DNA of 43,918 nucleotides from an uncultured Anaerolineaceae bacterium (GTDB taxonomy: Bacteria > Chloroflexota > Dehalococcoidia > Tepidiformales > Tepidiformaceae): the NCBI GenBank assembly GCA_964448165.1, contig CAYUVT010000001.1, positions 10,351 through 54,268 of the forward strand. Direction: 5' to 3'. Positions 1-41,396 of the stretch are shown piece after piece (within the stretch, counting starts at the first letter, position 1; each line of letters starts with the position of its first letter). A model generated the notes under the pieces. It saw nothing but the letters and a program-made list of their open reading frames with translations, was not told the DNA's origin and ran no database searches. The position numbers and the translations under genes are program-made.

Positions 1-689
1 ATGTCGATCAGCGCTCCGGTGAAGATAAGGATGCCCATCCCCACCATCACGCCGCCCGAGACACGTTCGACCGCGACATAGTGGCGAGCGAGGAAGTGTC
101 GCAATGTACCGAGGCGTTCGAACGCGAGGGCGGCGCCGAGGTGCGGGACGGCCATGCCCAACGCGAACGCCGAGAGCAGAGCAACCCCCAGCCAGAAGTC
201 GCCGAAGACGACCACGCTGGTGAGGATGGCGCCGAGCACCGGTCCGATGCAGGGCGTCCACGCGACCGACTAGGTCGCGCCGACAAGGAACGACCGCGTG
301 TACCCCGGCGCTGCGGTCTGGCCGACACGAAGCTCGAATGACCGCTGGAGTGCGGGCACCCGAAACACCCCCATCTGGACCAGGCCGAAGGCGATGACGA
401 TCGTGCCGCCGACCTTGAACAGTTGCGAGCGGATATCGGTCAGCGCGTAACCGGCGAAGCTCAGCCCGGCGCCGATCACCACGAACACCAGCGAGAACCC
501 GGCCACGTAGACGAGCGCGTGCGTCAGTCGCACCCGGCGCGAGGCGGACTGGGCTTCGACGCCTGCAAGATGCGCAAGGAACGCCGGCGTCATCGCGAGG
601 CAGCAGGGCGAGAGCGTGTTCACGGCCCCGGCCACGAACGCGAGTGTGAGCCCTGGGGCGGCGCGGTCGAACCCGAGGATCCAGTCCAT
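1..689 (-). pseudogene. ccdA: CcdA/DsbD-family cytochrome c biogenesis thiol-disulfide transporter with in-frame TAG at 270-272; 3' end runs off the window
   Basis: ORF 270-743 (likely start ATG 689, MDWILGF...) gives a TM protein with NTLSPCC. Reading on in the same frame past the TAG gives SVAWTPCIGPVLGAILTSVVVFG...GILIFTGALID, the second conserved CcdA half (WTPCxGP). The start ATG overlaps the upstream TGA (TGATG). Confidence 0.8.
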
Positions 690-1378
690 CAGCGGCAGGC
701 CCCCGGGTCGTGGTTGCCGGCCCGGATCCCCGCGACGATGCAACGCGCGATATCGGGATCGAGTTGCCCGATCCGGTGGTCGCGGATGATCCCCTGCTCA
801 TCGAGGAAAAAGGTCTCGGGGAGTCCCCTGAGCTTGTACGAGCCGGTGACCTCCCCGTACCTGTCGAGCGGCGTGGGGTAGTTGACCGAGAAATTGTTCA
901 CGAACTCCCGAGCGATGTCGGCTGATTCGTAGTAGTTGACTCCCAGGATCTGCGCGCTGTCACCCCACTCAGCCTGGAGCGCGACCAGGTCTGGCGTCTC
1001 CTTCCGGCAGGGGACGCACCACGTGGCCCAGAAGTTAATGACGACGGGCCGCCCTCGGAATTCCTCCAACCGGATCATCTGGCCTCCGAGGTCCAACAGA
1101 TGGAACCCTGGGGCAGGCTCCCCGAGCTTGGGCGCTCCTTCTCCTGTCGAGCCGAGGTTCAGCGAGGAGTACTCGCCCCCGATCGACGGCGCGGTCGGCG
1201 CGGCATTGATCTCCCGGAACATCTGCACCGCGACAATCCCGGCAACCACAGCGGCGATCGCCAGCACCGGGATGACAAGGTCGCGGAGCACGTTTCGACC
1301 GCGACGCTCGGCGGCTTCGTTGGTCTCCGGCGGATCCGGTTCATCGAGCCAGCCGCCGTCCTTGCGGTCGTCGTCCAC
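689..1378 (-). CDS. TlpA/ResA-like membrane-anchored thioredoxin (thiol:disulfide oxidoreductase)
   Basis: ORF 689-1459: TM segment VIPVLAIAAVVAGIVAV, then a thioredoxin fold with FWATWCVPCRKE. In-frame GTG 1378 lies 8 nt after the upstream stop with GGAG before it; ATG 1459 is the alternative start. Confidence 0.85.
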   Translation of the reverse strand: MDDDRKDGGWLDEPDPPETNEAAERRGRNVLRDLVIPVLAIAAVVAGIVAVQMFREINAAPTAPSIGGEYSSLNLGSTGEGAPKLGEPAPGFHLLDLGGQMIRLEEFRGRPVVINFWATWCVPCRKETPDLVALQAEWGDSAQILGVNYYESADIAREFVNNFSVNYPTPLDRYGEVTGSYKLRGLPETFFLDEQGIIRDHRIGQLDPDIARCIVAGIRAGNHDPGACR

Positions 1379-3680: not shown

Positions 3681-4364
3681 TCAAGAGACTCGCTCGGCGA
3701 CCACCACGTCCCGGTCGAGGTATTCACCGGGGCCGCCACCGTCCAGGTAGGCCCGGAAGCGGCCCCCGCAGGTGATCAGCGTGATCCATTCGGCCCCAGC
3801 GGGCTTCTCAGGCGCGGAGATGAGATCGCCCATGGGGATCGTCGTGACGTCGTAGCGCTGCTTCCGGAACACGCGATAGCGGTACTCCTGACCGTTCGCC
3901 ATAAGGACCGCGACCTCGTCGCCGGGCTCGAGCTTGGAGAGATTGAAGAAAGGCCCGCGGATGTTCGGCCAGTAGTCGACATGGGCGGAGAACAAAGCGT
4001 TGCCCAACCACCCGGGCCGGTCGTAGATGCCGTACCAGCCGACCTTGAGCGGGTCCTTCGGCACGTCGAGCTGGTTCTCGCCCGGGATCAGGCCGATGTT
4101 CTCGATGCCCGCGTCAACCTCGAACCGGGGGATCCGGAACCCGACGACCTCCCCGGCGAACGGCTCGGGAGTGGCGGTCGCAGTGGCCTCCTCGGGGACG
4201 ACGACGATGGGAGTGGACACCGCGCCCGCGGTCGTGGGCACGTCGAACGCGGCGAGCGGAGCGACGGCCTCGGGTTCGCCGGAGCGCGTGGCGCCGAACG
4301 CCCAGACGAGGAAGGCCAGCCCGGCCAGGAACGAAGCGACAGTGAGCAGGCGGAAGCGGCTCAT
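3681..4364 (-). CDS. Sortase-family transpeptidase (class F-like), membrane anchored
   Basis: MSRFRLLTVASFLAGLAFLVW anchor, LFSAHVDYW (His), TLITCGG (Cys), RDVVVAERV (Arg). ATG 4364; the ORF extension to 4454 crosses operator S2 and is unlikely to be translated. Confidence 0.8.
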   Translation of the reverse strand: MSRFRLLTVASFLAGLAFLVWAFGATRSGEPEAVAPLAAFDVPTTAGAVSTPIVVVPEEATATATPEPFAGEVVGFRIPRFEVDAGIENIGLIPGENQLDVPKDPLKVGWYGIYDRPGWLGNALFSAHVDYWPNIRGPFFNLSKLEPGDEVAVLMANGQEYRYRVFRKQRYDVTTIPMGDLISAPEKPAGAEWITLITCGGRFRAYLDGGGPGEYLDRDVVVAERVS

Positions 4365-4366
4365 CG

Positions 4367-4383
4367 TACTACGTATCGTAGTA
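4367..4383. promoter_or_regulatory. Operator-like dyad S2: TACTAC-N5-GTAGTA, 2 nt upstream of sortase ATG
   Basis: Perfect 6+6 palindrome read directly. No room for a Shine-Dalgarno, so the sortase mRNA may be leaderless or near-leaderless. Confidence 0.65.
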
Positions 4384-4468
4384 TCTGTTCGGGCTCCCGC
4401 CAATTCCACGAGGTGGCCAGTGCGGGTTCGATCGGACCCCGAAGTCTGCCCCACATGGGAGGGTGATG

Positions 4469-4485
4469 CACGACAACGTGTAGTA
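4469..4485. promoter_or_regulatory. Operator-like dyad S3: cACGAC-N5-GTAGTA upstream of lipoprotein gene
   Basis: One mismatch (C for T at position 1); 32 nt upstream of GTG 4517. Confidence 0.5.
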
Positions 4486-4516
4486 GATTGGTGGCACCGC
4501 CTCCGAGGAGAGCCAC

Positions 4517-4966
4517 GTGGGCATCCAGGCCGGCCGTGTTCGCTTTATCTTAGGCGCAGCAGTCGTCGCAGCCTCCGCGGTCATCCTCGCCGGGTGCGTT
4601 AACCACGGTGACGACGCTACGCCCACGCCTGACACCACCAGCCCGCGTGCCGTCGTCGAGCGATTCTTTCACTGGTACGTGAGCGAGCGAAACCTCGGAC
4701 GCGACCCGATGGCCCGGTCGGCCCTCCAGGCGAACGCGGACGTGACGCAAGAGTTCATCTCATCAATGGAGGCCGTAGCCGCGGGCGGGCGCGACCCGAT
4801 GTTGTGTTCCGGGGAGATCCCTCACGCCTTCACCGTTGGTGAGCCAGAGGTGTCCGGCACGGCGGCCCGCGTCACCGTAGGCGGCAACCTTGCGGCCTGG
4901 AGGATTGACCTCAGGCAGGCAAGTTCGGTCTGGCGCATCACAGCTGTCACCTGCGCCGTCGGGTGA
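4517..4966 (+). CDS. Lipoprotein of unknown function (DUF3828-like FxWY motif)
   Basis: GTG 4517 after GGAGGAG; signal peptide with lipobox ILAGC; FFHWYV motif. Confidence 0.6.
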   Translation: MGIQAGRVRFILGAAVVAASAVILAGCVNHGDDATPTPDTTSPRAVVERFFHWYVSERNLGRDPMARSALQANADVTQEFISSMEAVAAGGRDPMLCSGEIPHAFTVGEPEVSGTAARVTVGGNLAAWRIDLRQASSVWRITAVTCAVG

Positions 4967-5339
4967 GAGAGCGTCGGGCTACGCCCGCGCTTTTCGGGAT
5001 CACCGGTTCCCTGACCCGGATTGGCGATGCCTGGTTTTCCTCAGTTGGACGGCGATTCAGGTCGATGCGACCACGACGCCGTGCGGCGAGCCCCTGTGCC
5101 GCGATGAGGAGCCAAAGCAGCCCGCTTGGGACCGTGACCACCGCGGAGACGGTCAATCCGAGGGAGGCATAGGTGACCGAGAACAGCAGGAGCAGGACGC
5201 CGGTCGGCAAGCTCGTGAGCACGGGCGGCTTCGCGCTGCCGAGGGCCGTTGGCAGGAGAGAGGCGAAGAACACGATCGCCCCGACGGTGAAGACGAGATC
5301 CTGCCACGATGCCAAGATACCTCCTCCCACCCACGTCAC
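4947..5339 (-). CDS. Small multi-TM membrane protein, unknown function
   Basis: GTG 5339 overlaps the M50 stop (GTGA). Three hydrophobic helices (VFTVGAIVFFASLL, GVLLLLFSVTYASLGL, GLLWLLIAAQGL). The basic tail may be over-extended. Confidence 0.45.
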   Translation of the reverse strand: MTWVGGGILASWQDLVFTVGAIVFFASLLPTALGSAKPPVLTSLPTGVLLLLFSVTYASLGLTVSAVVTVPSGLLWLLIAAQGLAARRRGRIDLNRRPTEENQASPIRVREPVIPKSAGVARRSLTRRRR

Positions 5340-6499
5340 GTCCCACTCGGCCCGTCCGCGCCGTCCGTGGATGGCTGGTCCGGTGCGACGGCGCCCGCAA
5401 GTTGCACGCGGTCGAGGAGCTCCCGGCGGGTGATCAGACCCACCATCCGCCCGTCCGCGAGCACCGGAACCTGGTTGAGCCGGCCATCACCGAGCAGGTG
5501 AAGGACATCGAGCGCCGACGTGTCCGTTGAAACCGTTACGACCTTCTCGCGAGGGGTCATGATGCGCTGTGCAGGCGTGGTACTCCATTCGGCACGCGGC
5601 ACGCGCTGGACGTCCGTCACCGTCAGGATGCCGAGGACCGCGCCGCCGTTCGCGACCATCACCGCCCGTTCCCCCTTCTCCACGATGTAGCTGTCGACCA
5701 CCTCCTGCACCGGCATTCCTGGCGGGACGCTGACGAAGTCGTCGTGCATGAGGTTCCGGGCGCGAAGTGGGCGGAGGATCGTGTCGAGTTGCAGCTGCGC
5801 AGATTCGCCGCGGGCCGCGCCGAGGAGGAACCAGCCGATGAAGCCAAACCAGATGCCGTTCCAAAGGAATCCGTTGAGGACGAACACGAACCCGATGCCC
5901 ATCAGGCCGTAGGCGAACACTTCTCCAACCCCCGCCGCGGTGCTCGTGGCGCGCCGAAAGCTACGCGTGCGACCCCAGACGATCGAACGGAGGACGCGAC
6001 CGCCGTCCAGGGGGAAACCCGGCAGGAGGTTGAACACGCCGAGAAGAAGGTTGACGGCGGCCAGGTAGCCGAAGATCGCCTCGACTTTCTCGTTGCTGGC
6101 ACCGGCCGTAATAGCGACCACGCCGGCGATGGCCGCGATGACCAGGCTCGTTGCCGGACCCACCACGGCGATGGCGAACTCCGTGCGTGCGGTTTCCGGC
6201 TGGCGCGCCAGCTGAGAAACGCCCCCAAAGATGAAGAGTGTGATACGCGGCACCGGCACACCGCGACGAATCGCAACGAGCGCATGCGCCAGCTCGTGAA
6301 TAAGCACCGTGACGAATAAGAGGACGGCCGCGGCCACGCCCACCAGCCAGTAGGCAGTCGTGCTCCACTCTTTGTAGTGGTCGGGGAAGACGCCATCGGC
6401 GAGCGTCCACGAAAGAAGCGCGACGATCAGCAGCCAGGAGAAGTGGATGTTGATGTCAATGCCGGCGAGCCGGCATACGCGGAAAGTGGTCCCGTGCAT
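5336..6499 (-). CDS. Site-2 protease family M50 metalloprotease with C-terminal CBS pair
   Basis: HELAHALVA (HExxH), NLLPGFPLDGGRVL (NxxPxxxLDG), then two CBS-like repeats (AVLGILTVTDV, RMVGLITRREL). Confidence 0.9.
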   Translation of the reverse strand: MHGTTFRVCRLAGIDINIHFSWLLIVALLSWTLADGVFPDHYKEWSTTAYWLVGVAAAVLLFVTVLIHELAHALVAIRRGVPVPRITLFIFGGVSQLARQPETARTEFAIAVVGPATSLVIAAIAGVVAITAGASNEKVEAIFGYLAAVNLLLGVFNLLPGFPLDGGRVLRSIVWGRTRSFRRATSTAAGVGEVFAYGLMGIGFVFVLNGFLWNGIWFGFIGWFLLGAARGESAQLQLDTILRPLRARNLMHDDFVSVPPGMPVQEVVDSYIVEKGERAVMVANGGAVLGILTVTDVQRVPRAEWSTTPAQRIMTPREKVVTVSTDTSALDVLHLLGDGRLNQVPVLADGRMVGLITRRELLDRVQLAGAVAPDQPSTDGADGPSGT

Positions 6500-6611
6500 C
6501 GGCTATCCGACTTCCACTGGGCGTTCATCGGCGAGCGGCGTATCCTGAGCCGGCGATTGGGGGCTCAACCTTTCTCCCTCTACGCCGGAGCCCTGGAGCG
6601 GCCCAGGCGAC

Positions 6612-6628
6612 TACTACACGATATAGTA
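6612..6628. promoter_or_regulatory. Operator-like dyad S4: TACTAC-N5-aTAGTA upstream of the M50 gene
   Basis: One mismatch. On the minus strand it overlaps TACTAT (-10 candidate), about 110 nt upstream of ATG 6499. Confidence 0.5.
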
Positions 6629-6799
6629 CAAACGCTCGTGGGCCGACGGCCGAATGGACCCAGGTTCGCAGGTCATCCGGGCGATCCTCCGCGCGAGCCG
6701 GGCTGCCTGAGGTTGAATGCCCGTTGATGGCGACTGGGCGATATTCGCGGCGCCCAAACCGGCCTTGAAGAACGACTCAGAGGGATGCGAGGGTCCCCG

Positions 6800-7615
6800 C
6801 TACATCAGGAGGTGGGAGGTGCCTACCGCCGCGCCGACCGCGACCAGGTGAGCGACCACAGCGGGCAGGACCAGTCCCGCGGCGAGGGCGAGAAAGCTGC
6901 GCGTTGGAGCTTGCGGGAGGGGCGTCTCGGGGTGAACGAGGCGCGTTAGACGAAGCTCGACGTTCGCTCCGGTGACGCCAGCGGCCGCGGAATGGGCCGG
7001 CGGCAAGGCTGCGGCGGCAATCGCCTCGAAGAGCTCGCGACGGCGCGCGCCATTGCGGATGGCATAGTCGTCCGCTTCGCACTCTGTCCGGAGCGTCTCG
7101 GTCTCAACCGCATTGGCCACCCAGGGCAGAAACGGGAACGCCCGGCCAGTTGCCCGCAGCAGCAGTCTCCAGAGCACGTCCCTGTTCAGCTGGTGCGCCC
7201 GTTCGTGCAGAAGCGCCGCGCGCAACTCGGCATAGCCTAGTTCCCGCTCAGCCCCCTGGCTCACGAAGACTGTGGGCCGCAGCCCACCAGCCGTAAAGAT
7301 CACGATTGCATCCGAAGGAAGCACGCGGTAGTACAGGCCGTCAAGGCGAGCGGGCGTGCTGGTCCGCGTGAGCTGCCGGAGATCGCCGACTCCGCGTGCT
7401 GTCCGGATCAAAGAAAAAAGGAACCCGGCCGCCGGCAGGGCAGACACCAGCGCGAGCGTCAGGAACCCGAAGACCCGCGGGTGCGAGAACTCGATCGAAA
7501 GGTTGGAGAGCCCAGCGGCATAGAGGTGTGTGACCGCGGGATGGACCGTCGCCACCGGCGCAAGCATCAGCGCGACCGCGAGGGCCAGGAGCGCGAGCCG
7601 GCTGCCGCGGCTCAC
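6800..7615 (-). CDS. BlaR1/MecR1-type M56 membrane metalloprotease lacking a sensor domain
   Basis: TM helices plus LLHERAHQLNRD (HExxH). Only 271 aa, so no C-terminal penicillin-binding domain. Start overlaps the repressor stop by 4 nt. Confidence 0.85.
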   Translation of the reverse strand: MSRGSRLALLALAVALMLAPVATVHPAVTHLYAAGLSNLSIEFSHPRVFGFLTLALVSALPAAGFLFSLIRTARGVGDLRQLTRTSTPARLDGLYYRVLPSDAIVIFTAGGLRPTVFVSQGAERELGYAELRAALLHERAHQLNRDVLWRLLLRATGRAFPFLPWVANAVETETLRTECEADDYAIRNGARRRELFEAIAAAALPPAHSAAAGVTGANVELRLTRLVHPETPLPQAPTRSFLALAAGLVLPAVVAHLVAVGAAVGTSHLLM

Positions 7616-8022
7616 GGATCGATGTCCGTCAGGTGGGCCCTGAGCTGAGCCAGGAACGTCGGGTTGAGTCGTTCGGCCTCCAGCAGGAAGGCCGAGAGGC
7701 CGGCATCGCCAAGCTTCACCATCGCGCCCGCCAGGAATTCCCCACGGCGCTCGGAGAACTGCTCACGCGACATTGTCGGTGCGTACACGTGCGCTTTCCC
7801 CTCGCCGCGGCGCGCAACGAGGCCCTTTTTGTGCAGGCGCTGCAGGACCGTAAGGATCGTGGTGTAAGCGAGACCTCTCGGATTACCGACCTCCGCGAAT
7901 ACCTCAGGGGTGGCTAATTCGCCCTTGTCCCACAACGCCGCAAGGACCTGTGCCTCGAGCTCGCCAACGGATATCGACTGTGCAGGCTCTTTCTCCGGGT
8001 TCATGACCTCATCGTAAGGCAT
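7612..8022 (-). CDS. BlaI/MecI/CopY-family winged-helix transcriptional repressor (no Cys)
   Basis: ATG 8022 after AGGAGGAGG. GELEAQVLAALWDKGELATPEV...LAYTTILTVLQRLHKKGLVARR...HVYAP is the family signature. The CopY C-terminal CxCx4CxC motif is absent. Confidence 0.9.
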   Translation of the reverse strand: MPYDEVMNPEKEPAQSISVGELEAQVLAALWDKGELATPEVFAEVGNPRGLAYTTILTVLQRLHKKGLVARRGEGKAHVYAPTMSREQFSERRGEFLAGAMVKLGDAGLSAFLLEAERLNPTFLAQLRAHLTDIDP

Positions 8023-8117
8023 GTCCTCCTCCTGCTGGACGGCCCACTTGGTACACGGGGAATTGGCCACTCGACCGTAGCCGCGGCACCGATCCCGGCT
8101 CACGCTAACGATGGTGA

Positions 8118-8134
8118 TACGACGGGGCGTAGTA
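8118..8134. promoter_or_regulatory. Operator-like dyad S5: TACGAC-N5-GTAGTA between repressor gene and divergent SHOCT/cupredoxin genes
   Basis: Matches the consensus perfectly. Overlaps TAGTAT (+ strand -10 candidate); about 95 nt upstream of the repressor ATG, so a likely autoregulatory site. Confidence 0.65.
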
Positions 8135-8262
8135 TTGCATGACGATGCCCGAGGCGGCTCGTCTTGTGCGGCCTTGTGCCGGCCCCGGCGAGCCGCATCA
8201 ATGCGGCGCGCGGACGGCCGCCGGGCAGAGCAAGCGCCGATCGCCGCGAAAGGAGCAGTTGC

Positions 8263-8487
8263 ATGTGGGGAGCACACGAGGGAATGGGATGGTGGATGCT
8301 GTTCGGTGGCGTTTTCTGGGTGTTATTCATCGTGACCTTGGTGTACCTGTTCACGAGCGCATTCGACCGCAGCTCTGGCACGACGGAGACACGATCAGAC
8401 ACACCACTGGAGATCGCGAAGCGCCGGCTCGCAGCCGGCGAGATCTCCCATGAGGAGTTCGACCGGCTGCGCGAGAAGCTTCGCTAG
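8263..8487 (+). CDS. SHOCT-domain small membrane protein
   Basis: ATG 8263 after AAAGGAG. MWGAHEGMGWWMLFGGVFWVLFIV TM segment, then the C-terminal SHOCT motif LEIAKRRLAAGEISHEEFDRLREKL. Confidence 0.75.
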   Translation: MWGAHEGMGWWMLFGGVFWVLFIVTLVYLFTSAFDRSSGTTETRSDTPLEIAKRRLAAGEISHEEFDRLREKLR

Positions 8488-8551
8488 GCCTGGGTCGCAG
8501 CAGCGGCGGATCGTCAGCGTGCCGGAGAGACCGGCAAGGGAGTAGTGACAG

Positions 8552-9010
8552 ATGCAATCCACAGGGACAGCGACACCGGGCCAGCAGCGAGCGCTCGTCT
8601 TGCTGGCCGTCGTACTGCTCCTCGGCATGCTGGTCGGGATCGCTGGCATGGCCATGTGGATGGCCGCCGCATGGCCCGGCGGCTGGGGCTTCGACCACAT
8701 GAACAGGATGATGGGCGGAGGGGGACGCGACAGCTCGCGCGACACGGCTGTACAGGGTTCGTTGGCCGAGACCATCAACATCGAGGACTTCGCCTACTCC
8801 CCCGGTAACCTTGAGGTGCCCGTGGGGGCGAGCGTGACCTGGATCAACCGCGACAGCGCGCCGCACTCGGCAACTGACCGGGACGGCTCCTGGGACACGG
8901 GGCTCCTGGCGCAGGGAGAGCGGGCCACGCTCGTCTTCGACGCACCCGGCACCTTCGACTACTACTGCACCGTGCACCCGAACATGAAGGCGCAGCTCGT
9001 TGTGCGTTAA
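8552..9010 (+). CDS. Membrane-anchored type-1 copper (cupredoxin/plastocyanin-like) protein
   Basis: TM anchor, Met/His-rich linker (FDHMNRMMGGGG), and cupredoxin ligands APHS...YYCTVHPNM (H, C, H, M). Confidence 0.85.
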   Translation: MQSTGTATPGQQRALVLLAVVLLLGMLVGIAGMAMWMAAAWPGGWGFDHMNRMMGGGGRDSSRDTAVQGSLAETINIEDFAYSPGNLEVPVGASVTWINRDSAPHSATDRDGSWDTGLLAQGERATLVFDAPGTFDYYCTVHPNMKAQLVVR

Positions 9011-10429: not shown

Positions 10430-10446
10430 TACGACTTATCGTCGTA
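10430..10446. promoter_or_regulatory. Operator-like dyad S6: TACGAC-N5-GTCGTA
   Basis: Perfect palindrome, 30 nt upstream of ATG 10476, followed by GAGAGGAG. Confidence 0.65.
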
Positions 10447-10475: not shown

Positions 10476-10805
10476 ATGCTTCACCTGATCATCCGGCCGT
10501 TCATCCGGCTGCTGGCCACGAGCCCGGAGATCGAGCGGCTCCCCTTCGTGCAACGGCCGCGGACTATGGCCGCGACCTGGGCCGGGCTCCTCGTCTGCAA
10601 GGTCGGGGCAATGGTCCTGCTGTCGCCCGCGATCGGGGCAGAGCTATTCGTCGCGACGCTTGTCGCTGGGATCGCTGCGACGTACGTCCGCTTCGGCCTG
10701 GGGCGGTCAATCGAAAGGGTCAATGGGGCCACGACGAGCCGTGGTTCGAAGGCGACCAGCATCACCCAGTCGGCGAACCCACTCGCTTCGCCCGTGCGGG
10801 CGTAA
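10476..10805 (+). CDS. Hypothetical membrane protein
   Basis: Strong SD and operator upstream; hydrophobic core TWAGLLVCKVGAMVLL...FVATLVAGIAATYV. The C-terminal third looks low-complexity. An antisense ORF (10481-11059) shares wobble positions, so the 3' end is uncertain. Confidence 0.4.
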   Translation: MLHLIIRPFIRLLATSPEIERLPFVQRPRTMAATWAGLLVCKVGAMVLLSPAIGAELFVATLVAGIAATYVRFGLGRSIERVNGATTSRGSKATSITQSANPLASPVRA

Positions 10806-10959: not shown

Positions 10960-12801
10960 TCACAGTGCATACGCGTGCTCGACGTATTGTTGCGCCATGC
11001 GATGCGCGTTGAAGAACGAACCATTGATGGCGATTGTCTGCTTCATGATGCGTGTCCACACGTCTGGGGTGCCGTAAAAGGCAGGCAGGACCGCATCCTC
11101 CAGCTTCGCGTATAAGTCCGCGCTGTCCGCGCGATCGGCCTCCTCCCCGTCCAAGGGATCGACCGCACCGATGGACCAGCCGGTGACACCCTCGACGTGA
11201 CCCTCACGCCACCAGCCATCGAGCACGCTGAGGCTCGGCACCCCGTTCAGCGCCGCCTTCATCCCTGAAGTCCCGGAGGCTTCGAGGGGCCGCAGCGGCG
11301 TATTCAGCCACACGTCGGCGCCGGCGGTGAGCTTGAGCGCGAGATCGAGGTCGTAGCCCTCGAGATACACGACGGGGAACTCTGCTCCGAGCCGTTCGGC
11401 GAAGGCCAGGACCTCGCGGATGACCTCCTTGCCTCCGCCGTCGTCCGGGTGGGCGATGCCCGCGAACACGAGCTGGAAGGGGCGGGTGCGCGCTATGGCG
11501 CGCAGGCGCTCGATGTCGCGAAAGATGAGGGTCGGACGCTTGTAGGCGGTTGCCCTCCGTGCGAAGCCGATGGTGAGGATGTTCGGATCCAGCCGGGCGC
11601 CGGCGCGGATCTCGGTTTCCTTGAGCAACGCACCCTTGGCTGCCACGTGGGCCGCCTTCAGTTCGGCATCTGGGAGCGCTGTCGCATTGCGGAGCATCCA
11701 GGGGTCGCTTCGCCAGCCGGGGATACGCCGGTCGAACAGCGCCTGGATGGGGCGGCTGGTCCACCGCTGCGAGTGCACGCCGTTCGTGATCTGATGGATC
11801 TCGTACTCGGGGAACATCGAACTCGAGACTTCGCGGTGGCGAAGGGCGACGCCGTTCACGTAGTGGCTGAGGTTCAGGGCGAGCGCCGTCATGTTGAGGT
11901 CGCCGCTCCCGGCCAGCATCTCCAGGACGGAGTCGTCGATGAAGCCCGGCAGGAGGTCGTGCAGCAGTGCACGGTCAAAGCGGTCGTGCCCGGCGGCGAC
12001 CGGGGTGTGCGTGGTGAACACGCAGCGACGACGTACGTCAGCGAAGTCCCACTCGCCGCCGCTCGCCACGCGCTGGCGCAGCAACTCCACCGGGACGAGA
12101 GCCGCGTGACCCTCGTTGAGGTGGAAGGTGGTCAGGCCGCTGCAGCCCAGAGCCTGGAGCAAGCGAACACCACCCAGCGCCAGCACGATCTCCTGCGCCA
12201 GCCGGTAGCGACGATCACCTCCGTAGAGGTGGTCTGTCAGCGTGCGGCTCCAGGCATCGTTCTCGGGATGATCCGTGTCGAGGAGGACGAGTGGCACGAC
12301 GTGCTCTCCAGACCCGACGAACGACGTTTGCCACCCGCCGACGTGGACGTCCTGGCCTTCGACCTGGACGGTGGTCTCGACTGGGAGTCGCTGGAGGGAC
12401 GCTTCAGGCGACCAGGGGGAGCGCTCGTCCTCCTGTGCTCCGTCCCGAAGGCGTTGTTTGACATACCCCATGTGGTGGACGAGCGAAACGCCAACCACGG
12501 CCACGCCGAGGTCGGCGCAGGCCTGCAGGTGGTCGCCGGCGAGGACGCCGAGGCCGCCGGCATAGGTCGGCGCGTTGGACCGGAACGCCACCTCCATCGA
12601 GAAGTACGCGACGCGGACGGAGGACCATGCGAGCGGGACTGCCGCGGTTCCAGGTCGACCGTAGGCGGCGCCGCGTCGCTCGAACTGGCGCCTGCAGAAC
12701 TCCGAGCAGAAGAAGAAGGTCTCGCCGTCCCTCTCCACTGGCAGCGCCGCCGCGGACTCGATCGGCATCTGGCAGACCGGGTCGGTGACTGTCATGCTCA
12801 A
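10960..12801 (-). CDS. glgP: Alpha-glucan phosphorylase (GT35) with N-terminal YHS/TRASH-like metal-binding domain
   Basis: N-terminus DPVCQMPIE...GETFFFCSEFCRRQFE. The core has FSMEVA...YAGGLGVLAGDHL and the PLP-lysine motif EASGTSGMKAALNGVPSLSVLDGWW. Confidence 0.9.
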   Translation of the reverse strand: MSMTVTDPVCQMPIESAAALPVERDGETFFFCSEFCRRQFERRGAAYGRPGTAAVPLAWSSVRVAYFSMEVAFRSNAPTYAGGLGVLAGDHLQACADLGVAVVGVSLVHHMGYVKQRLRDGAQEDERSPWSPEASLQRLPVETTVQVEGQDVHVGGWQTSFVGSGEHVVPLVLLDTDHPENDAWSRTLTDHLYGGDRRYRLAQEIVLALGGVRLLQALGCSGLTTFHLNEGHAALVPVELLRQRVASGGEWDFADVRRRCVFTTHTPVAAGHDRFDRALLHDLLPGFIDDSVLEMLAGSGDLNMTALALNLSHYVNGVALRHREVSSSMFPEYEIHQITNGVHSQRWTSRPIQALFDRRIPGWRSDPWMLRNATALPDAELKAAHVAAKGALLKETEIRAGARLDPNILTIGFARRATAYKRPTLIFRDIERLRAIARTRPFQLVFAGIAHPDDGGGKEVIREVLAFAERLGAEFPVVYLEGYDLDLALKLTAGADVWLNTPLRPLEASGTSGMKAALNGVPSLSVLDGWWREGHVEGVTGWSIGAVDPLDGEEADRADSADLYAKLEDAVLPAFYGTPDVWTRIMKQTIAINGSFFNAHRMAQQYVEHAYAL

Positions 12802-12831
12802 TCGCCTCCCCCGACTCCTTCTTGCGGTACG

Positions 12832-13416
12832 TCAGGCCGAAGCGGGCGAGGCTGTCGAACGGGCGGCGTGAGCCCGCGGGCCGATCAGCACGACCGGGAG
12901 GGGCGATTGCCGCATGACCTCCTCGGCGACGCTGCCCACGAGCGTATGCCTGATGCCGCTGCGTCCGTGGGTCCCCATCGCGATCGCGTCCGCGCCCAGG
13001 GCCTTGGCCGTCTCAAGGATGGCCTCCGCCGTGCGGTCGGAGAAATCGACGTGGATCGAGGCGCCTGCCCCCGCCAGGTCTCGAGCCGCTACCTGCCGCA
13101 GGTAGTCCTCTCGCTCGGATCGCGCCCGGGCAAGCGCTTGTCCCCGGTATTCGACAGTCATCGGCCGTTGATCCCCGACGGCGGCTCTGAGCCCGCCATA
13201 CTGGTCGCCACCGACCGCGGGGATGTGGCCTGGCTCTGTCCCCTCAGGCTCAAGAAACTCGGCGGAGCTCGACCGCTCGGCACGGCTATGAACCTCGTCG
13301 GGGTGAATCACCGAGAGAAGATGGACTTCCATCGTACCCGCGCGCGCCCAGGTCTCCATCGCGCGGGCCGCGCTCTCGCCGATCTCACTCATATCCAAGG
13401 CGACCAGGACTCGCAT
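12832..13416 (-). CDS. Universal stress protein (UspA family)
   Basis: ATG 13416 after AGGAGG. MRVLVALDMSE...GADAIAMGTHGRSGIRHTLVGSVAEEVMRQSPLPVVLI. Confidence 0.85.
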   Translation of the reverse strand: MRVLVALDMSEIGESAARAMETWARAGTMEVHLLSVIHPDEVHSRAERSSSAEFLEPEGTEPGHIPAVGGDQYGGLRAAVGDQRPMTVEYRGQALARARSEREDYLRQVAARDLAGAGASIHVDFSDRTAEAILETAKALGADAIAMGTHGRSGIRHTLVGSVAEEVMRQSPLPVVLIGPRAHAARSTASPASA

Positions 13417-13426
13417 GGCGAACCTC

Positions 13427-13654
13427 CTATAATTTGCTCGATCCCGTGTCGGCTGCAGCTGGAGGCGCGGCGGCTTCGGCCTCGCGCGCCGGGGCCGCTG
13501 CCGGTTGGGCGACAGGGTCGGTCTCGGCCAGTAGTTCCTTCTCCGCTGCGAGCCAGTCGTCGAGGTCGTGTCCGTCCGCGCAGCCACGCGCACAGTAGAG
13601 CTCGTACGCGCGTCGCTCGATCGCGCTCGGATCGACGAAAAGGTTCTCCGGCAT
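13427..13654 (-). CDS. DUF2934-family small protein with CARGC (CxxxC) variant
   Basis: RRAYELYCARGCADGHDLDDWLAAE matches the DUF2934 core (RAYxxW/YxxRG...D..DWxxAE). The ATG overlaps the upstream TGA (TGATG). Confidence 0.75.
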   Translation of the reverse strand: MPENLFVDPSAIERRAYELYCARGCADGHDLDDWLAAEKELLAETDPVAQPAAAPAREAEAAAPPAAADTGSSKL

Positions 13655-13872
13655 CAGCTTGCCCTCCTCCCTGGCATCGGGCTTATCGGTGTCTCGGCCC
13701 CGGGTAGAGCAGGGCTCGGGTCAGCCGGCGCCTGGAGCGCTTGTTCGCGGCAGGCTCGGCAGCGGCTGCGCATGGCGCGCCCGGATGCGACATCGACGAT
13801 CCAGGCGGCCGGGTGACCGCACGCGCCCCGGCGCTCGTTCCGTGAATCCTCACACCTGGGCACCTCCGGCAC
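13654..13872 (-). CDS. Small hypothetical protein (paralog of the N-terminal part of 33690-34190)
   Basis: GHPAAWIVDVASGRAMRSR aligns with GHKERVAWVVDLASRRIVRVD of the other locus. It has the same position relative to a DUF2934 gene and an N4 dyad. Start is uncertain (GTG 13872 or 13863). Confidence 0.3.
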   Translation of the reverse strand: MPEVPRCEDSRNERRGACGHPAAWIVDVASGRAMRSRCRACREQALQAPADPSPALPGAETPISPMPGRRAS

Positions 13873-13898
13873 CCAATCCCGACGCGCCGCCTGAAGTC

Positions 13899-13914
13899 TA
13901 CGACGGACGTAGGA
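13899..13914. promoter_or_regulatory. Operator-like dyad S7: TACGAC-N4-GTAGgA
   Basis: One mismatch. Heads the minus-strand string small ORF-DUF2934-USP-YHS-GlgP. Confidence 0.5.
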
Positions 13915-14046
13915 GGACGACAATTGAACATCGCGGGGACGGAGGACACGTCCGAATGCTCCGCCGCGAGGGGGCCGGGTGGACCAACTCCGACGGCCAC
14001 GGGGCAACGGCGTGGCACTGCGAGCTGATAACACCTTCGGCCCGGC

Positions 14047-14904
14047 TCAGGGCTGCGTCCGGACCAGCAGCACGGGTCTGTCCGCCGCCCGCATGACCGC
14101 GTCTGCGGTGCTTCCGAGGGCCAGGCGGCGCACGCCCCCGCGCCCGTGCGTGCCCATCACGATGATCCCGCATCCATGCCGGTCCGCGTAGTCGAGGATC
14201 ACGTCGAGCGGGCGCCCTTCGGCGACCGAGTGTGTCTCACCAGGGTGTTCTACTGCCCCGAGATACTCTTCGGCCCAGGCGGTCAGCTGTTCGCGGGCGT
14301 CATCTATGCCATAGGCGGGCCAGGGCATGCCGATCTGGCCGAGCAGGTCGACGGCCCGCAGCAGGTGGATCTCGGCGCCGAGCGCGGCCGCTAGATCGCG
14401 GGCTTCCGCCAGGGCAAGCTCCGCCGTAGCCGAGCCGTCGAGCGGCACGAGAATGCGAGCGACCGGGGGGCGACTCGAGGCGGGATGGACCACGAGCGCA
14501 GATCGTGTCGCCGTGCGGATCAGGGAGTCGGCGATGCTGCCCATGGTGAAGCGACGGAGGCCGCCGCGGCCGTGCGTCGTCAACGCCACAAGCCGAACGT
14601 CGAGCTCATCGACTGCGGCACGCAGCTCCGACTGGACGTGTCCTGAACGAACTTCCTCCGTCACAGCCACCCCAGCGAGGTCCGCCCGCTGAGCGACCCG
14701 ACGGAGGTAGGACCGAAGCTCCCCTTCGACCGCTCCGGCCACCGGCCGGTGATGAAGTGCCACTCGCTCCAACACGTGGTGGCCAGCGTCCCACACCGTC
14801 AGGAGCTTCACGGAACAGTCGTACGCGCGGGCGAGGTACGCAGCCCAGGGAAGCGCCTCCTCAGCCAGCGTCGACTCGTCCAGCGGTACCACGATCGTCG
14901 GCAT
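14047..14904 (-). CDS. Tandem-domain universal stress protein
   Basis: Two USP repeats, each ending in a G-2x-G-9x-G(S/T)-like motif (TTHGRGGLRRFTMGSIAD; GTHGRGGVRRLALGSTAD). Confidence 0.85.
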   Translation of the reverse strand: MPTIVVPLDESTLAEEALPWAAYLARAYDCSVKLLTVWDAGHHVLERVALHHRPVAGAVEGELRSYLRRVAQRADLAGVAVTEEVRSGHVQSELRAAVDELDVRLVALTTHGRGGLRRFTMGSIADSLIRTATRSALVVHPASSRPPVARILVPLDGSATAELALAEARDLAAALGAEIHLLRAVDLLGQIGMPWPAYGIDDAREQLTAWAEEYLGAVEHPGETHSVAEGRPLDVILDYADRHGCGIIVMGTHGRGGVRRLALGSTADAVMRAADRPVLLVRTQP

Positions 14905-16952: not shown

Positions 16953-16969
16953 TACGACTTGTAGTAGTA
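16953..16969. promoter_or_regulatory. Operator-like dyad S9: TACGAC-N5-GTAGTA upstream of cytochrome b
   Basis: GTAGTAGTA allows N2 or N5 registers. It overlaps TAATAT (16968-16973, -10 candidate), about 95 nt before ATG 17062. Confidence 0.6.
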
Positions 16970-17061
16970 ATATGCCCGTCCGGTAGCGTGCGTCTGCCGC
17001 CGTCGTGCGCAGGGGCGCCGGGGCGTTCGGACGGGAGCGGGAGTGAAGGAAGGTCCGGTCG

Positions 17062-18159
17062 ATGACACAGCAAGCGACGGATCCCGATGGCGGCCGAGTG
17101 TGGCGCTGGATTGACTCGCGGCTGGGGCTAGGGAGCCTCGCCTATCCGATCCCCGCCCATGCGAATAACGTCCTCTACACGCTCGGGGGCATCACTCTCT
17201 TCGGCATCCTCGTCCTGGTCGGCAGCGGGATCTACCTCACCCAGTTCTACCACCCCGACCCCACCCAGGCGCGAGAGAGCATCGCCTACATCATCACCAC
17301 CGCCCGACTCGGCGAGTACGTCCGCGGGCTGCACTTCTGGATGGCGAACCTCGTGGCGATCACCCTCCTCCTGCACCTCGTGCGGGTCTTCGCCACCGGG
17401 CGCCACGGGAGCTGAACTGGGTCGTCGGCGTCGGGCTGCTCGGTGTCATGCTTCGGCCTCGTCTTCACGGGGACGGTCCTCAAGTGGGACCAGGAAGGCT
17501 GGGAGGCACTCCAGCACAACCAGGAGGTCGGCGAGCTGCTCGGCGGCGCCGGCGTCTGGTTCACGCCAGAGTTCACCGACAGTACCCCGATCCTGGATCG
17601 GCTCTTCATCGCGCACATCGCGATCCTCCCGTTCTTGCTCGGAGGCCTCGCGCTGGTCCACATGCTGCTCGTGAAACACCACGGCATCTCGGCGCGGCCG
17701 GGCGAAGCGATCACCCACCCCGGGCACACGGATGCGCGCGAGGCAATGGAGCGCGAAGGCTACCGACCCTTCACGAGCCACCTGGTTCACATCGTGGGCT
17801 GGGGTCTCGTGGTAGCGGCGGCGGGCAGCCTCCTGGCCTTGGTCTTCGGGGCACCCCTCGGGGAGATCATCGACCCCAGCGAGGAGAAGACGAAGCCGCT
17901 CTGGATGTTCCTGCCCCTCTATCCGTTCGAGGACTGGTTTGGCATCAGAGCGCTGCTCTGGCTGCCGGTCGTCGCCCTCGTGGTGCTCGCGGCCGTGCCA
18001 TGGATCGACCGGTTCAGGTCGAGCGCGCTGCGGCCCCGCGCGCCGCTTCTCGTCGCTGGTATCGCCATCATCCTGGCGCTGGTCGGGCTTGGCATCTACG
18101 GACAAGTCTCCGCGCCTGCCGAGCACGTGCCGGGGGTTGAGGAGGAGAACACGGGATGA
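17062..18159 (+). pseudogene. Cytochrome b (b6 plus subunit IV-like fusion), frame broken twice within about 50 nt (or two sequencing indels)
   Basis: ORF 17062-17415 has helix B with HFWMANLVAITLLLH and ends RVFATGRHGS*. PRELNWVVGVGLLGV is in another frame (17400-17447). ORF 17443-18159 resumes with FGLVFTGTVLKWDQEGW and helix D AHIAILPFLLGGLALVH. The shifts lie at G-run 17398-17400 and near 17451. Confidence 0.85.
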
Positions 18160-36360: not shown

Positions 36361-36818
36361 ACTGGCACCTCCGATTGGGGTTGGATGGACTCGGGCTCAC
36401 GGTCGACGATCCCGACGCAGTCACAGGGATTGAGCGTGAGCAGGCGGTGATCGTCGGGCTCGATGCCGCGGAGCCCGGCCGCGAGCGAGGCCAGCTGTTG
36501 CTCCGCTCTTTCGAGCTCACGTAGCCGCGCCTGGACTCTGGTCACGAGGCCGTCAGTCGCGTCGATCAGCGCTTCGCGCATCTCCCGGCAGCTGCCGTCG
36601 TGGTAGATACGAATCAGCGTCGACATCTCCGCCAGCGAGCAGCCCAGCTCCCGTAGCCGTCGCGCGAACCGGAGGGTTTCCAGGTGTTGGTCGCTGTACT
36701 CGCGGTACCCGCTCGTACCACGAGGCACGGCGGGGAGGACACCGGCCCGCTCGTAGTAGCGGATGGTGTCGGCTGAGAGGCCGGAGGCGTCCGCTGCATC
36801 TCGAATCTTCAATGGCAT
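36357..36818 (-). CDS. merR: MerR-family metal-responsive activator (Hg-type Cys pattern)
   Basis: IRDAADASGLSADTIRYYERAGVL HTH. Cys in DGSCREM and, after the coiled coil, NPCDCVG. The stop overlaps the merA start by 4 nt. Confidence 0.85.
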   Translation of the reverse strand: MPLKIRDAADASGLSADTIRYYERAGVLPAVPRGTSGYREYSDQHLETLRFARRLRELGCSLAEMSTLIRIYHDGSCREMREALIDATDGLVTRVQARLRELERAEQQLASLAAGLRGIEPDDHRLLTLNPCDCVGIVDREPESIQPQSEVPV

Positions 36819-41279: not shown

Positions 41280-41379
41280 CGGCTCTGCCTCCTTACCCTG
41301 TAGACCTTGTCTTCGGTCGACTCCTTCGGTCCCGTCGCTCAATCGGACGAGAACGGACACGCCTCGGGCCCTTCCATCG

Positions 41380-41396
41380 TACTACCCCAGGCCGTA
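41380..41396. promoter_or_regulatory. Operator-like dyad S15: TACTAC-N5-GcCGTA upstream of copA
   Basis: One mismatch; about 100 nt upstream of ATG 41279. Confidence 0.45.

Follow-up and report, generated by a model that had tools for sequence, protein, structure and literature searches.

Which signal releases a BlaI-family repressor whose membrane protease partner carries no penicillin-binding domain, and does its release require one protease or two? The question is raised by a 43,918-nucleotide stretch of Chloroflexi DNA (hereafter the window) in which a repressor–protease gene pair lies beside the gene for a site-2-type protease with two CBS domains (M50-CBS). A first-pass annotation had read the pair as a proteolytic de-repression switch, guessed at metal or thiol stress as its signal, and combined both proteases into a cascade. 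The analysis described here favors a single-protease switch of the PetR/PetP type known from Synechocystis.

The Repressor–Protease Pair

The pair consists of two overlapping genes:

7612–8022, minus strand: 136-aa winged-helix repressor resembling BlaI/PetR, free of Cys and of transmembrane segments (Pfam PF03965)
6800–7615, minus strand: 271-aa membrane zinc protease of the M48/M56 superfamily, PetP-like, with three transmembrane helices and without a penicillin-binding domain

The repressor matches the Pfam family Penicillinase_R with E = 1.5e-23, and its ATG is preceded by the ribosome-binding site GGAGGAGGA. Among proteins of solved structure, its best match is M. tuberculosis BlaI (2G9W, 9e-11), and in the alignment F112-L113 coincides with the BlaI cleavage site N101-F102. 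The TGA stop of the repressor gene and the GTG start of the protease gene share four nucleotides (GTGA).

The protease harbors HERAH at residues 137–141 and ends within its last transmembrane helix; therefore, it has no penicillin-binding domain. Its Pfam M56 match, at 19 bits, is below the cut-off of 31, and many of its homologues have a precomputed PF05569 match. In a structure search with its AlphaFold model (pLDDT 84.6), S. aureus BlaR1 ranks first (probability 1.00, TM 0.46), followed by the M48 proteases ZMPSTE24, Ste24, and HtpX. The description of a BlaR1-like M56 protease translationally coupled to the repressor thus stands. The catalytic residues H137, E138, H141, E178, and D182, as well as R222, are present in 50 of 50 representatives of a ~268-aa subfamily. 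Three non-catalytic histidines, His25 (46/50), His30 (39/50), and His256 (47/50), are conserved nearly as well as the catalytic site and are placed at the predicted outer membrane face, where, judging from residue conservation, they form a candidate metal site. The earlier label “sensor-less” is correct as regards the penicillin-binding domain; however, given these histidines, the protease may not be devoid of a sensor.

In 21/21 Chloroflexi loci, the two genes are kept together, their coding regions either overlapping or lying close to one another. The window sequence itself shows the four-nucleotide overlap, which is also present in the gene tables of L001, L003, and L120–L124. The closest long relative, L120, has an M56 protease 80% identical to that of the window and the same gene order apart from a missing M50-CBS gene. 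Outside the Chloroflexi, M56 genes are preceded by a BlaI homologue in other phyla as well. Among cultured relatives, plasmids of Rhodococcus and Mycobacterium carry BlaI amid copC, ccdA, tlpA, and P-type ATPase genes, and in Rhodococcus the plasmid BlaI is accompanied by an annotated M56 protein. This constant pairing, together with the lack of metal-binding Cys in the repressor, supports the earlier view of the pair as a proteolytic switch.

The Operator and Its Distribution

A 6-5-6 dyad, TAC[G/T]AC-N5-GT[A/C]GTA, occurs in 6–7 copies in the window, compared to 0.01–0.11 expected by chance (4 observed vs 0.01 expected with at most one mismatch; 7 vs 0.11 with at most two). The boxes, listed as unstranded where no strand is assigned, and the genes they precede are as follows:

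8118–8134, unstranded: operator box TACGACGGGGCGTAGTA, lying between blaI and the divergently oriented SHOCT-cupredoxin operon
8164–8487, plus strand: SHOCT membrane protein, divergent from blaI and sharing its operator
8552–9010, plus strand: plastocyanin/amicyanin-type cupredoxin, same divergent operon as the SHOCT gene
6612–6628, unstranded: operator box TACTACACGATATAGTA, read as TACTATATCGTGTAGTA along the gene strand, 113 nt ahead of the M50-CBS start
4469–4485, unstranded: operator box, with the lipoprotein-like gene 32 nt downstream
4517–4966, plus strand: lipoprotein-like gene, regulon member
4367–4383, unstranded: perfect operator box TACTACGTATCGTAGTA, followed closely by the likely sortase ATG at 4364
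3681–4364, minus strand: class F sortase-like gene, regulon member (Pfam Sortase)
10430–10446, plus strand: perfect palindromic box TACGACTTATCGTCGTA
10476–10805, plus strand: small ORF behind the preceding box
16953–16969, plus strand: box ahead of the cytochrome b gene
17047–18159, plus strand: cytochrome b gene, disrupted in the window
41380–41396, minus strand: weaker, imperfect box 20 nt upstream of the large ATPase start
38289–41360, minus strand: P1B copper ATPase with cupredoxin, HMA, and YHS domains

The dyad noticed earlier at 6612 is thus one of the enriched copies. Across 24 pair-bearing sequences (the window and 23 loci), 75 boxes were found in 379 kb; control loci totalling 526 kb contained none. 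In 19/24 related loci, blaI has a box no more than 350 nt upstream, and the genes behind boxes across the 24 include blaI, cupredoxins, YHS and PCYCGC genes, cytochrome b, and the sortase/lipoprotein pair. Boxes also precede P1B copper ATPases (L003, L017, L020, and L123), the cupredoxin and SHOCT-PCYCGC genes of L123, and a multicopper oxidase gene in L001.

Several arrangements recur. The divergent SHOCT-cupredoxin/blaI layout is found in L001, L005, L008, L010, L012, L120, and L124. In L121, a cupredoxin gene is also located upstream of blaI, but extra ORFs intervene and the upstream region has no Pfam SHOCT match. The double-box layout of the sortase and lipoprotein genes is repeated in L120, as is the box ahead of the small ORF; the sortase-like gene scores below the NCBIfam class_F_sortase cut-off. 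Orthologues of the lipoprotein-like gene have a box ahead in 5/6 loci, and cytochrome b is behind a box in 3/3. Orthologues of the large ATPase directly follow blaI-M56 in L018 and, in L014, follow blaI-M56 behind a box and a DoxX gene. The box at the window's own large ATPase is imperfect, a point against the switch proposed below.

The earlier suggestion that mercury genes belong to the same regulon is not supported: merR-merA are served by a regulator of their own, and no box was found ahead of them in the window and related loci.

A Probable Copper-Triggered Switch

On this basis, the pair at 6800–8022 is probably a PetR/PetP-type copper-triggered, repressor-degrading switch wired to copper-handling genes. 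A Cys-free BlaI-family dimer would bind the dyad and shut off its own operon along with a dispersed set of copper-handling genes. In the window, its targets would be the SHOCT-cupredoxin operon, the sortase/lipoprotein pair, cytochrome b, and the small ORF, with the large Cu-ATPase as a probable further member; relatives would add more P1B ATPases, YHS and PCYCGC genes, and a multicopper oxidase. The co-translated three-helix zinc protease, with its catalytic domain predicted in the cytoplasm, would be activated by copper at the outer ends of its transmembrane helices, for which His25, His30, and His256 are candidate ligands. The activated protease would then degrade the repressor, and the regulon would be induced. 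Copper is the most likely form of the metal signal guessed at earlier, as the operator marks copper-handling genes in many genomes.

The sortase, lipoprotein, M50-CBS, and cytochrome b genes of the regulon have no obvious copper link, an observation that counts against a copper switch.

A switch of the same design that responds to envelope, thiol/disulfide, or respiratory-chain stress, a kind of signal put forward for other BlaIR systems lacking the sensor domain, is possible but clearly less probable than one responding to copper. Approximately 94% of M56 proteins lack a transpeptidase (beta-lactam-binding) sensor domain, with most of their signals unknown. The mycobacterial pair, which includes the solved protein most similar to the repressor, is tied to energy metabolism. 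Sortase, cytochrome b, a TlpA-like redoxin, CcdA, and ResB are likewise found among the regulon and its neighbors. However, many genomes have boxes immediately ahead of P1B Cu-ATPase, cupredoxin, multicopper oxidase, YHS, and PCYCGC genes, the operator agrees with that of the copper-responsive PetR, and the conserved His cluster fits metal binding.

The M50-CBS Protease

The site-2-type protease and its coupled partner are encoded as follows:

5336–6499, minus strand: M50 site-2-type protease with CBS pair (Pfam M50 3.3e-22, 2x CBS)
4947–5339, minus strand: small membrane protein, 4-nt GTGA overlap with the M50 stop

Both were described accurately in the first-pass annotation, and the active-site motifs HELAH and NLLPGFPLDG are intact. 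The small membrane protein has 73–77% identical homologues in other genomes; in L001 and L005, its homologue directly follows M56 with no M50 gene between.

The gene-neighborhood comparison proposed with the cascade sets M50-CBS apart from the pair. While the pair is constant, M50-CBS is found within 10 kb of it in only 4/21 informative loci, adjoining it in the window, L124, and L010 and lying 4 kb away in L012. It is missing from this range in the other 17, including L120. Conversely, none of the 83 loci fetched through M50-CBS relatives (80 metagenome loci and L117–L119) holds a BlaI/M56 pair. The metagenome relatives adjoin universal stress protein genes, and in the L001 genome the M50-CBS gene is 58 kb from the pair in a housekeeping context. 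All four linked copies keep a dedicated box of one flavor, TACT[A/C]T-N5-GTAGTA, and are 76–98% identical, compared to 51–69% for M56 at the same loci. M50-CBS copies of L117 and L118 (80–82% identical) are located elsewhere with decayed boxes.

Because it has its own operator box, M50-CBS is an output downstream of the repressor. It is most likely a facultative regulon member, an optional target of the switch rather than one of its components. Together with the small membrane protein, it would constitute variable cargo brought under the shared operator in some lineages, with a plausible role in membrane-protein processing or quality control under metal stress.

A role for M50-CBS as a third, feedback component, which clears or resets activated M56 intramembranously or processes another membrane-bound regulon product, is improbable. 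The dedicated box and the unusual conservation of the linked copies are in its favor, but most pair-bearing genomes have no linked copy, and the similar L117 and L118 copies sit elsewhere and carry decayed boxes.

The cascade, in which M56 cuts first and M50-CBS second in the manner of site-1 and site-2 proteases and de-repression depends on the two cuts together, is more improbable still. The adjacency described above and the link of the S2P Rip1 of M. tuberculosis to copper resistance speak for it. Against it are the 17 loci without a nearby M50-CBS, the 0/83 reverse count, and the distant L001 copy. Furthermore, a gene with its own box would be repressed until the switch had already fired, a soluble repressor without a transmembrane segment does not need an intramembrane cut, and no second protease is described for PetR/PetP.

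Least likely of all is direct metal sensing by the repressor, in the manner of CopY, with the protease as a mere accessory. Repressor and CopY are members of one family, and the CopY model (TIGR02698) is the top NCBIfam match, but the repressor's score of 38.6 is far below the equivalog cut-off of 121.95. In agreement with the first-pass annotation, the CopY CxCx4CxC site is absent: among its 136 residues the repressor has no Cys and only three scattered His. It is also invariably paired with the protease.

Comparison with Known Systems

BlaI/BlaR1 and MecI/MecR1 of Staphylococcus aureus and Bacillus licheniformis likewise combine a repressor with a membrane zinc protease for proteolytic de-repression, and the window protease shares with BlaR1 the HExxH and a downstream Glu/Asp motif. 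In contrast to BlaR1/MecR1, it has three helices instead of four and no penicillin-binding sensor domain, and the regulon has no beta-lactamase target. That most BlaR-like proteins lack a sensor domain is already recognized in the literature. M56 partners of this kind are found in mycobacterial BlaI/BlaR (Rv1846c/Rv1845c), C. difficile CenIR, and P. aeruginosa PvmSR. Other such systems respond to apparently non-metal signals, a point against copper here; the genes controlled by these three serve energy metabolism, the cell envelope, or virulence, and no copper-gene regulon has been reported for them. M. tuberculosis BlaI has a similar dyad as its operator.

CopY/TcrY of Firmicutes belong to the same winged-helix family and also repress copper ATPase genes. 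However, CopY senses Cu(I) directly via its C-terminal CxCx4CxC, binds a TACAnnTGTA box, and has no protease partner, whereas the window repressor has no Cys and falls below the CopY equivalog cut-off. M50-CBS resembles SpoIVFB of B. subtilis and the Rv2625c-type of M. tuberculosis, in which an M50 core with HExxH and NxxPxxxxDG is followed by a C-terminal CBS pair. Unlike other CBS-domain M50 proteases, it has a BlaI-type operator ahead of its gene, in a few Chloroflexi genomes only.

Of the known systems, PetR/PetP (Slr0240/Slr0241) of Synechocystis sp. PCC 6803 comes closest; there, PetR degradation requires PetP and copper together (Garcia-Canas et al. 2021; bioRxiv 10.1101/2020.07.31.226407). 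In E. coli extracts, PetR is degraded given PetP and copper; PetR lacks the CopY copper sites, and its authors judged direct copper sensing by it unlikely (bioRxiv 10.1101/2020.07.31.226407). The copper dependence of PetR/PetP is thus experimental, whereas the present pair is known from sequence and is likened to it by description and operator. The similarities are several. Both repressors are BlaI/CopY-family factors without CopY copper sites, both protease starts overlap the repressor stop codon, both proteases belong to the M48/M56 superfamily with a cytoplasmic HExxH domain and no C-terminal sensor, and both regulons include a plastocyanin-type cupredoxin. The PetR operator core is GAC-N5-GTC (bioRxiv 10.1101/2020.07.31.226407), and the petE promoter sites in supplementary dataset 2 of that paper, TA[C/T]GAC-N5-GTC[A/G]TA, form the same 6-5-6 dyad; half-sites in the window and its relatives are TACGAC or TACTAC, compared to TA[C/T]GAC for PetR.

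There are also salient differences, the first of which counts against the PetR/PetP reading. PetP is predicted to span the membrane four times and conserves Met53/Met58 in an outer loop, where the three-helix window protease has no Met and instead conserves His25/His30/His256. The host is a non-photosynthetic Chloroflexi MAG rather than a cyanobacterium. The PetR regulon comprises four genes and no copper-resistance genes, whereas the boxes here mark P1B ATPases, multicopper oxidase, YHS/PCYCGC genes, sortase, and in some genomes M50-CBS. The first-pass annotation knew of no BlaI/M56 control of copper genes; PetR/PetP is exactly such a precedent, and therefore a BlaI/M56 pair that controls copper-related genes is already known.

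The Repressor and Its Protease Partner

The pair consists of two genes:

7612–8022, minus strand: BlaI-family repressor, 136 aa, Pfam Penicillinase_R (PF03965)
6800–7615, minus strand: M48/M56 membrane protease, 271 aa, with a HERAH motif and a fold match to BlaR1

The repressor scores 83.8 bits against PF03965 (cut-off 22.6, E = 1.5e-23), which places it, by its N-terminal winged helix, in the BlaI/MecI/CopY family, and its matches in the PDB are the BlaI proteins of M. tuberculosis, B. licheniformis, and S. aureus, as well as MecI. The first-pass annotation had described it as a BlaI-type repressor devoid of the CopY CxCx4CxC copper site, and both parts of this description hold: the protein harbors neither cysteines nor transmembrane segments and reaches 38.6 bits against the CopY/TcrY model TIGR02698, below the equivalog cut-off of 121.95. 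A ribosome-binding site, GGAGGAGGA, precedes the start codon. The G+C content of the window is 67%, and its proteins find their best matches in MAGs of Dehalococcoidia and Tepidiformaceae-type Chloroflexi.

The GTG start codon of the protease overlaps the TGA stop codon of the repressor as GTGA (7612–7615). The HERAH motif occupies residues 137–141, and an alignment of 27 homologues shows no variation at H137, E138, H141, D146, E178, and D182; H137, E138, H141, E178, and D182 are likewise invariant in 50 subfamily sequences, so that the M56 zinc motif is complete. The protein falls below the gathering cut-off of Pfam PF05569 (M56) (19 bits vs. 31), and its family profile is closer to HtpX (M48, 4.6e-5) than to BlaR1 (0.056). 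Its AlphaFold model (pLDDT 84.6, pTM 0.80) matches first S. aureus BlaR1 (8EXP; probability 1.00, TM 0.46), followed by ZMPSTE24, Ste24, and HtpX. The enzyme is best described as a member of the M48/M56 superfamily, like PetP of the Synechocystis PetR/PetP system. Its hydrophobic helices, three in total, span residues 4–29, 47–72, and 239–271. A penicillin-binding (transpeptidase-like) sensor domain was not found in the protein, which stops at residue 271, in or just past the last helix; since nothing lies beyond that helix, the sensor is absent, and the earlier picture of a short protease coupled to the repressor and devoid of a penicillin-binding sensor domain is confirmed.

Candidate Metal-Sensing Residues

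Among 1.84 billion representative proteins searched (E ≤ 1e-30), 53 clusters belong to the ~268-aa protease subfamily. Among 50 representatives, all of which retain the catalytic residues, His25 is found in 46, His30 in 39, and His256 in 47. His25 and His30 are located at the end of helix 1, and His256 lies 17 residues into the last helix. Since the repressor can be reached only from the cytoplasmic side, where the protease domain must then be located, all three histidines would be disposed toward the outer face. We propose His25, His30, and His256 as a candidate metal-sensing site, a concrete candidate for the means by which a BlaR-type protease lacking the sensor domain could perceive its signal. 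Many subfamily representatives (P0182–P0232; window residues 256–268) also harbor a cysteine ~10 residues beyond His256, still within the last helix (AHxLxxxGxxC). This cysteine, absent from the window's own clade, may bind metal in addition to the histidines or in their place.

The Putative Operator Box and a Probable Copper Regulon

The putative operator of the repressor is a 6-5-6 dyad, TAC[G/T]AC-N5-GT[A/C]GTA, found in the window at the following positions:

4367 and 4469: two boxes, between sortase and lipoprotein genes
6612: box ahead of the M50-CBS gene
8118: box TACGACGGGGCGTAGTA, between blaI and a divergent SHOCT–cupredoxin operon
10430: box TACGACTTATCGTCGTA, ahead of a small ORF
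16953: box ahead of cytochrome b
41380: weaker box, 20 nt upstream of the start codon of a P1B ATPase gene (cupredoxin, HMA, and YHS domains)

The dyad at 6612, noted already in the first-pass annotation, is thus one copy of a box family. TACTA-N7-TAGTA occurs four times in the window at ≤1 mismatch (0.01 expected), and the 12-base dyad occurs seven times at ≤2 mismatches (0.11 expected). The dyads were found by pattern search; a seeded inverted-repeat finder missed them because their arms are too short. The operator of mycobacterial BlaI may resemble this dyad. A promoter and terminator scan of positions 4200–8600 gave no promoter-like sites and terminators not above chance, and is uninformative on transcription units.

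Loci from other genomes, metagenomes, and plasmids carry L numbers here. The 24 pair-bearing sequences (the window and 23 Chloroflexi loci, 379 kb) contain 75 boxes; the control loci, 526 kb retrieved by way of M50-CBS relatives, contain none. Every Chloroflexi locus has the repressor gene immediately ahead of the M56 gene, and blaI is preceded by a box in 19 of the 24. Boxes are also found ahead of P1B ATPases (L003, L017, L020, and L123), a multicopper oxidase (L001), a cupredoxin (directly) and a SHOCT–PCYCGC pair (both in L123), cytochrome b (3/3 loci), and the lipoprotein gene (5/6). P1B ATPases adjoin the pair also in L011, L013, L014, L018, and L021 and lie ≤10 kb from it in Vulcanimicrobiota and Deltaproteobacteria loci. 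Large assemblies in which the pair occurs include GCA_016191435.1 and GCA_016234445.1. These placements of boxes suggest that the boxes mark a copper-homeostasis regulon in Chloroflexi, whose regulation by the pair we infer.

TACTAT-N5-GT[A/C]GTA boxes flank BlaI/M56 pairs in MAGs of Acidobacteriota, Proteobacteria, and Deltaproteobacteria, as well as on a Rhodococcus plasmid (L026, 10622; L027, 2130 and 3680; L035, 9122; L036, 9055 and 10584; L127, 7405). This operator type therefore reaches well beyond Chloroflexi.

A tblastn search of plasmids with the repressor identifies BlaI genes within copper-resistance islands of cultured Actinomycetota; the M56 protein as query gave no match in plasmids. 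In Rhodococcus pseudokoreensis R79 (plasmid NZ_CP070615.1, 241775–243111), BlaI and M56 genes are located between ccdA–peroxiredoxin–glutaredoxin–copC and tlpA–DUF3105–DUF305. In Mycobacterium lentiflavum, the BlaI gene is flanked by copC and a P-type ATPase, and the incomplete gene table of the plasmid lists no M56 gene beside it. Meiothermus taiwanensis has BlaI and M48 protease genes near a heavy-metal ATPase. The Rhodococcus and Mycobacterium relatives, ~38% identical at the repressor, provide culturable hosts for testing the general idea.

Mercury Genes and Other Genes of the Window

The mercury genes were initially counted among the targets of the BlaI/M56 pair:

36357–36818, minus strand: merR
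34963–36360, minus strand: merA

The two overlap by 4 nt, and MerA scores 481.6, above the TIGR02053 equivalog cut-off of 454.45. No BlaI-type box is found near merR–merA in the window, so that the mercury module stands apart and has a regulator of its own; its inclusion in the regulon is not supported.

Two genes of the window are disrupted. The cytochrome b gene (17047–18159, plus strand) has an in-frame TGA at 17413–17415, and its conserved RAPRELNWVVGVGLL motif is read in another frame at roughly 17395–17450. These two compensating frameshifts relative to the intact L005 orthologue point to a pseudogene or an assembly error. The CcdA/DsbD_TM gene (3–743, minus strand) has an in-frame TAG at 270–272, where the L120 and L121 orthologues encode tyrosine (VGAT*SVAWTPC in the window vs. 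VGATYSVAWTPC). Two unusual fusions are also encoded: in one (38289–41360, minus strand), a P1B copper ATPase bears a cupredoxin domain at its N terminus, an HMA domain, and a YHS domain at its C terminus; in the other (10960–12801, minus strand), a glycogen-phosphorylase-like protein bears a YHS domain at its N terminus.

The M50-CBS Protease

Downstream of the pair lie two further genes:

5336–6499, minus strand: M50 site-2 protease with a CBS pair (PF02163, 79.4 bits; PF00571, 65.9 bits, two stretches)
4947–5339, minus strand: small membrane protein, in GTGA overlap with the M50 gene

Both had been recognized from the outset, including their coupling. The M50 motifs are intact (HELAH at residue 68 and NLLPGFPLDG at residue 157), and the gene is 300 bp from that of the M56 protease. 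The small membrane protein, which like the M56 protein is matched by no NCBIfam model, has no Cys, no His, and Met only as initiator. It directly follows M56, with no M50 gene, in L001 (10948–11235) and L005 (10953–11195), and thus tracks the pair rather than the M50 protease.

The M50-CBS protease is best read as an optional, lineage-specific output of the regulon and not as a second signalling step. It adjoins the pair in the window, L124, and L010 and is 4 kb off in L012 (4 of 21 loci with enough downstream sequence); seen from the M50 side, linkage to the pair is found in 0 of 83 loci, and the 80 metagenome loci among them, fetched via M50-CBS relatives, contain no BlaI, M56, or box. At E ≤ 1e-60, the M50-CBS family itself runs to at least 6,960 proteins. 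The M56 protein of L120, the closest long relative, is 80% identical to that of the window, and the genes flanking the pair on either side follow the window's order (SHOCT and cupredoxin on one; lipoprotein gene, sortase, BNR protein, redoxin, and CcdA on the other), with M50-CBS and the small membrane protein missing from the otherwise matching order. Copies 82% and 80% identical occur away from the pair in L117 and L118, and the L001 genome has one 58 kb from it, on a contig stretch with RNase HII, TatA, and SecDF genes. All four linked M50 genes have a TACT[A/C]T-N5-GTAGTA box 90–150 nt upstream.

The promoters of the L117 (~6030–6060) and L118 (~2800–2830) copies are homologous, and their boxes are decayed: the L118 remnant, TACCATACGCGGTAGTC, is two mismatches from the M50-type box and that of L117 four, which hints that regulation was lost after relocation. 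L120 contains a second, different pair (12896–14237; BlaI, 137 aa, and M56, 311 aa) between CcdA and ResB; these genomes thus hold several BlaI/M56 systems, one of them within a cytochrome c maturation cluster.

Another role for the M50-CBS protease, which we regard as improbable, is that of a third component of the switch, recruited in this Chloroflexi lineage: once induced by the switch, it would cleave the activated M56 sensor or another membrane-bound product of the regulon. If true, M50-CBS would afford a protease-on-protease reset or a second processing step, undescribed for BlaI/BlaR systems. The first-pass annotation had placed both proteases in a cascade that relieves repression, with adjacency of BlaI, short M56, and M50-CBS expected to be conserved. 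This cascade is not upheld: the linkage is sporadic, and the soluble repressor, having no membrane anchor, requires no intramembrane cut. A gene behind the repressor's operator would be expressed only once the switch has fired, and M50-CBS is thus best read as optional cargo of the regulon. In M. tuberculosis, the PDZ-type site-2 protease Rip1 is needed for copper resistance, by a different route, so that a copper-induced intramembrane protease acting as an effector is not implausible. A dormancy-type regulon containing M50-CBS, paralleled by Rv2625c beside universal stress protein genes, is rejected, since M50-CBS has a BlaI-type box and the stress-protein, PPK2, and PFOR genes of the window do not.

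More distant M50-CBS relatives adjoin genes for universal stress proteins or YHS-type glycogen phosphorylases (L044–L046, L056, L070, L104, and L113), and the same gene types occur in the window at 10960–14904 and 23021–23938. This suggests a stress-related neighborhood of M50-CBS that is independent of BlaI/M56.

Comparison with Known Copper Switches

Bacterial copper efflux is usually assigned to regulators of the CueR, CsoR, CopY, and CusRS/CopRS types. PetR/PetP represents a fifth copper logic, copper-activated proteolysis of a BlaI-type repressor, only for the cyanobacterial plastocyanin/cytochrome c6 swap. With moderate confidence, we favor a PetR/PetP-like, copper-activated protease switch that controls a copper-homeostasis regulon; M50-CBS would be an output specific to the lineage. 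The core of the original proposal, a proteolytic metal switch, is thus likely, with copper the best candidate signal given the boxes at copper genes and the PetR/PetP precedent; the cascade, the inclusion of the mercury genes, and the claim of novelty are not supported.

PetR is a BlaI/CopY-family factor without the CopY copper sites, and petP, which overlaps the petR stop codon, encodes an M48/M56 protease without the BlaR sensor domain; degradation of PetR needs PetP and copper together (Garcia-Canas et al. 2021, bioRxiv 10.1101/2020.07.31.226407). The operator core is GAC-N5-GTC (bioRxiv 10.1101/2020.07.31.226407), and petE promoters carry TACGAC-AGATT-GTCATA, TATGAC-AACTT-GTCGTA, and similar sequences, i.e., TA[C/T]GAC-N5-GTC[A/G]TA (bioRxiv 10.1101/2020.07.31.226407, supplementary dataset). 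The likeness is judged from the published description and these promoter sequences. The window shares the arrangement of a BlaI-family factor devoid of Cys and a sensor-less M48/M56 protease, with the stop codon of the first gene overlapping the start of the second, as well as the 6-5-6 dyad, although some of its half-sites are TACTAC. A cupredoxin would also be under control of the box (at 8118 here, directly in L123), as plastocyanin is in the PetR system. PetR/PetP has thus overtaken the statement that no such BlaI/M56 control of copper genes is known.

However, several salient differences exist. Four helices are predicted for PetP, whose outer TM2–TM3 loop contains two conserved methionines proposed as copper ligands, and the PetR regulon comprises four genes, none for copper resistance (bioRxiv 10.1101/2020.07.31.226407). 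In contrast, the window protease has three helices and lacks Met throughout residues 25–46, harboring conserved histidines instead, and boxes of the window type mark a copper-homeostasis regulon. According to a 2023 review, which leaves open what BlaR homologues do in heterotrophs, PetR/PetP drives no copper-homeostasis response; a literature search on BlaI/BlaR control of copper ATPases returned nothing besides PetR/PetP. In a 2026 survey, only ~6% of M56 proteins have a transpeptidase sensor and 96% have a BlaI gene nearby, making the sensor-less pair the rule and not the exception.

Differing in wiring, candidate ligand residues, and topology, the window system is a variant of the PetR/PetP kind. 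The same logic is suggested for whole Chloroflexi copper-homeostasis regulons that include P1B ATPases, a multicopper oxidase, cupredoxins, and YHS and PCYCGC proteins, and, by gene neighborhood, it may also operate in Vulcanimicrobiota, Deltaproteobacteria, and Actinomycetota. The principle is already published with PetR/PetP; what is new is its proposed extension beyond cyanobacteria to regulons of copper resistance, together with the candidate histidine sensor site.
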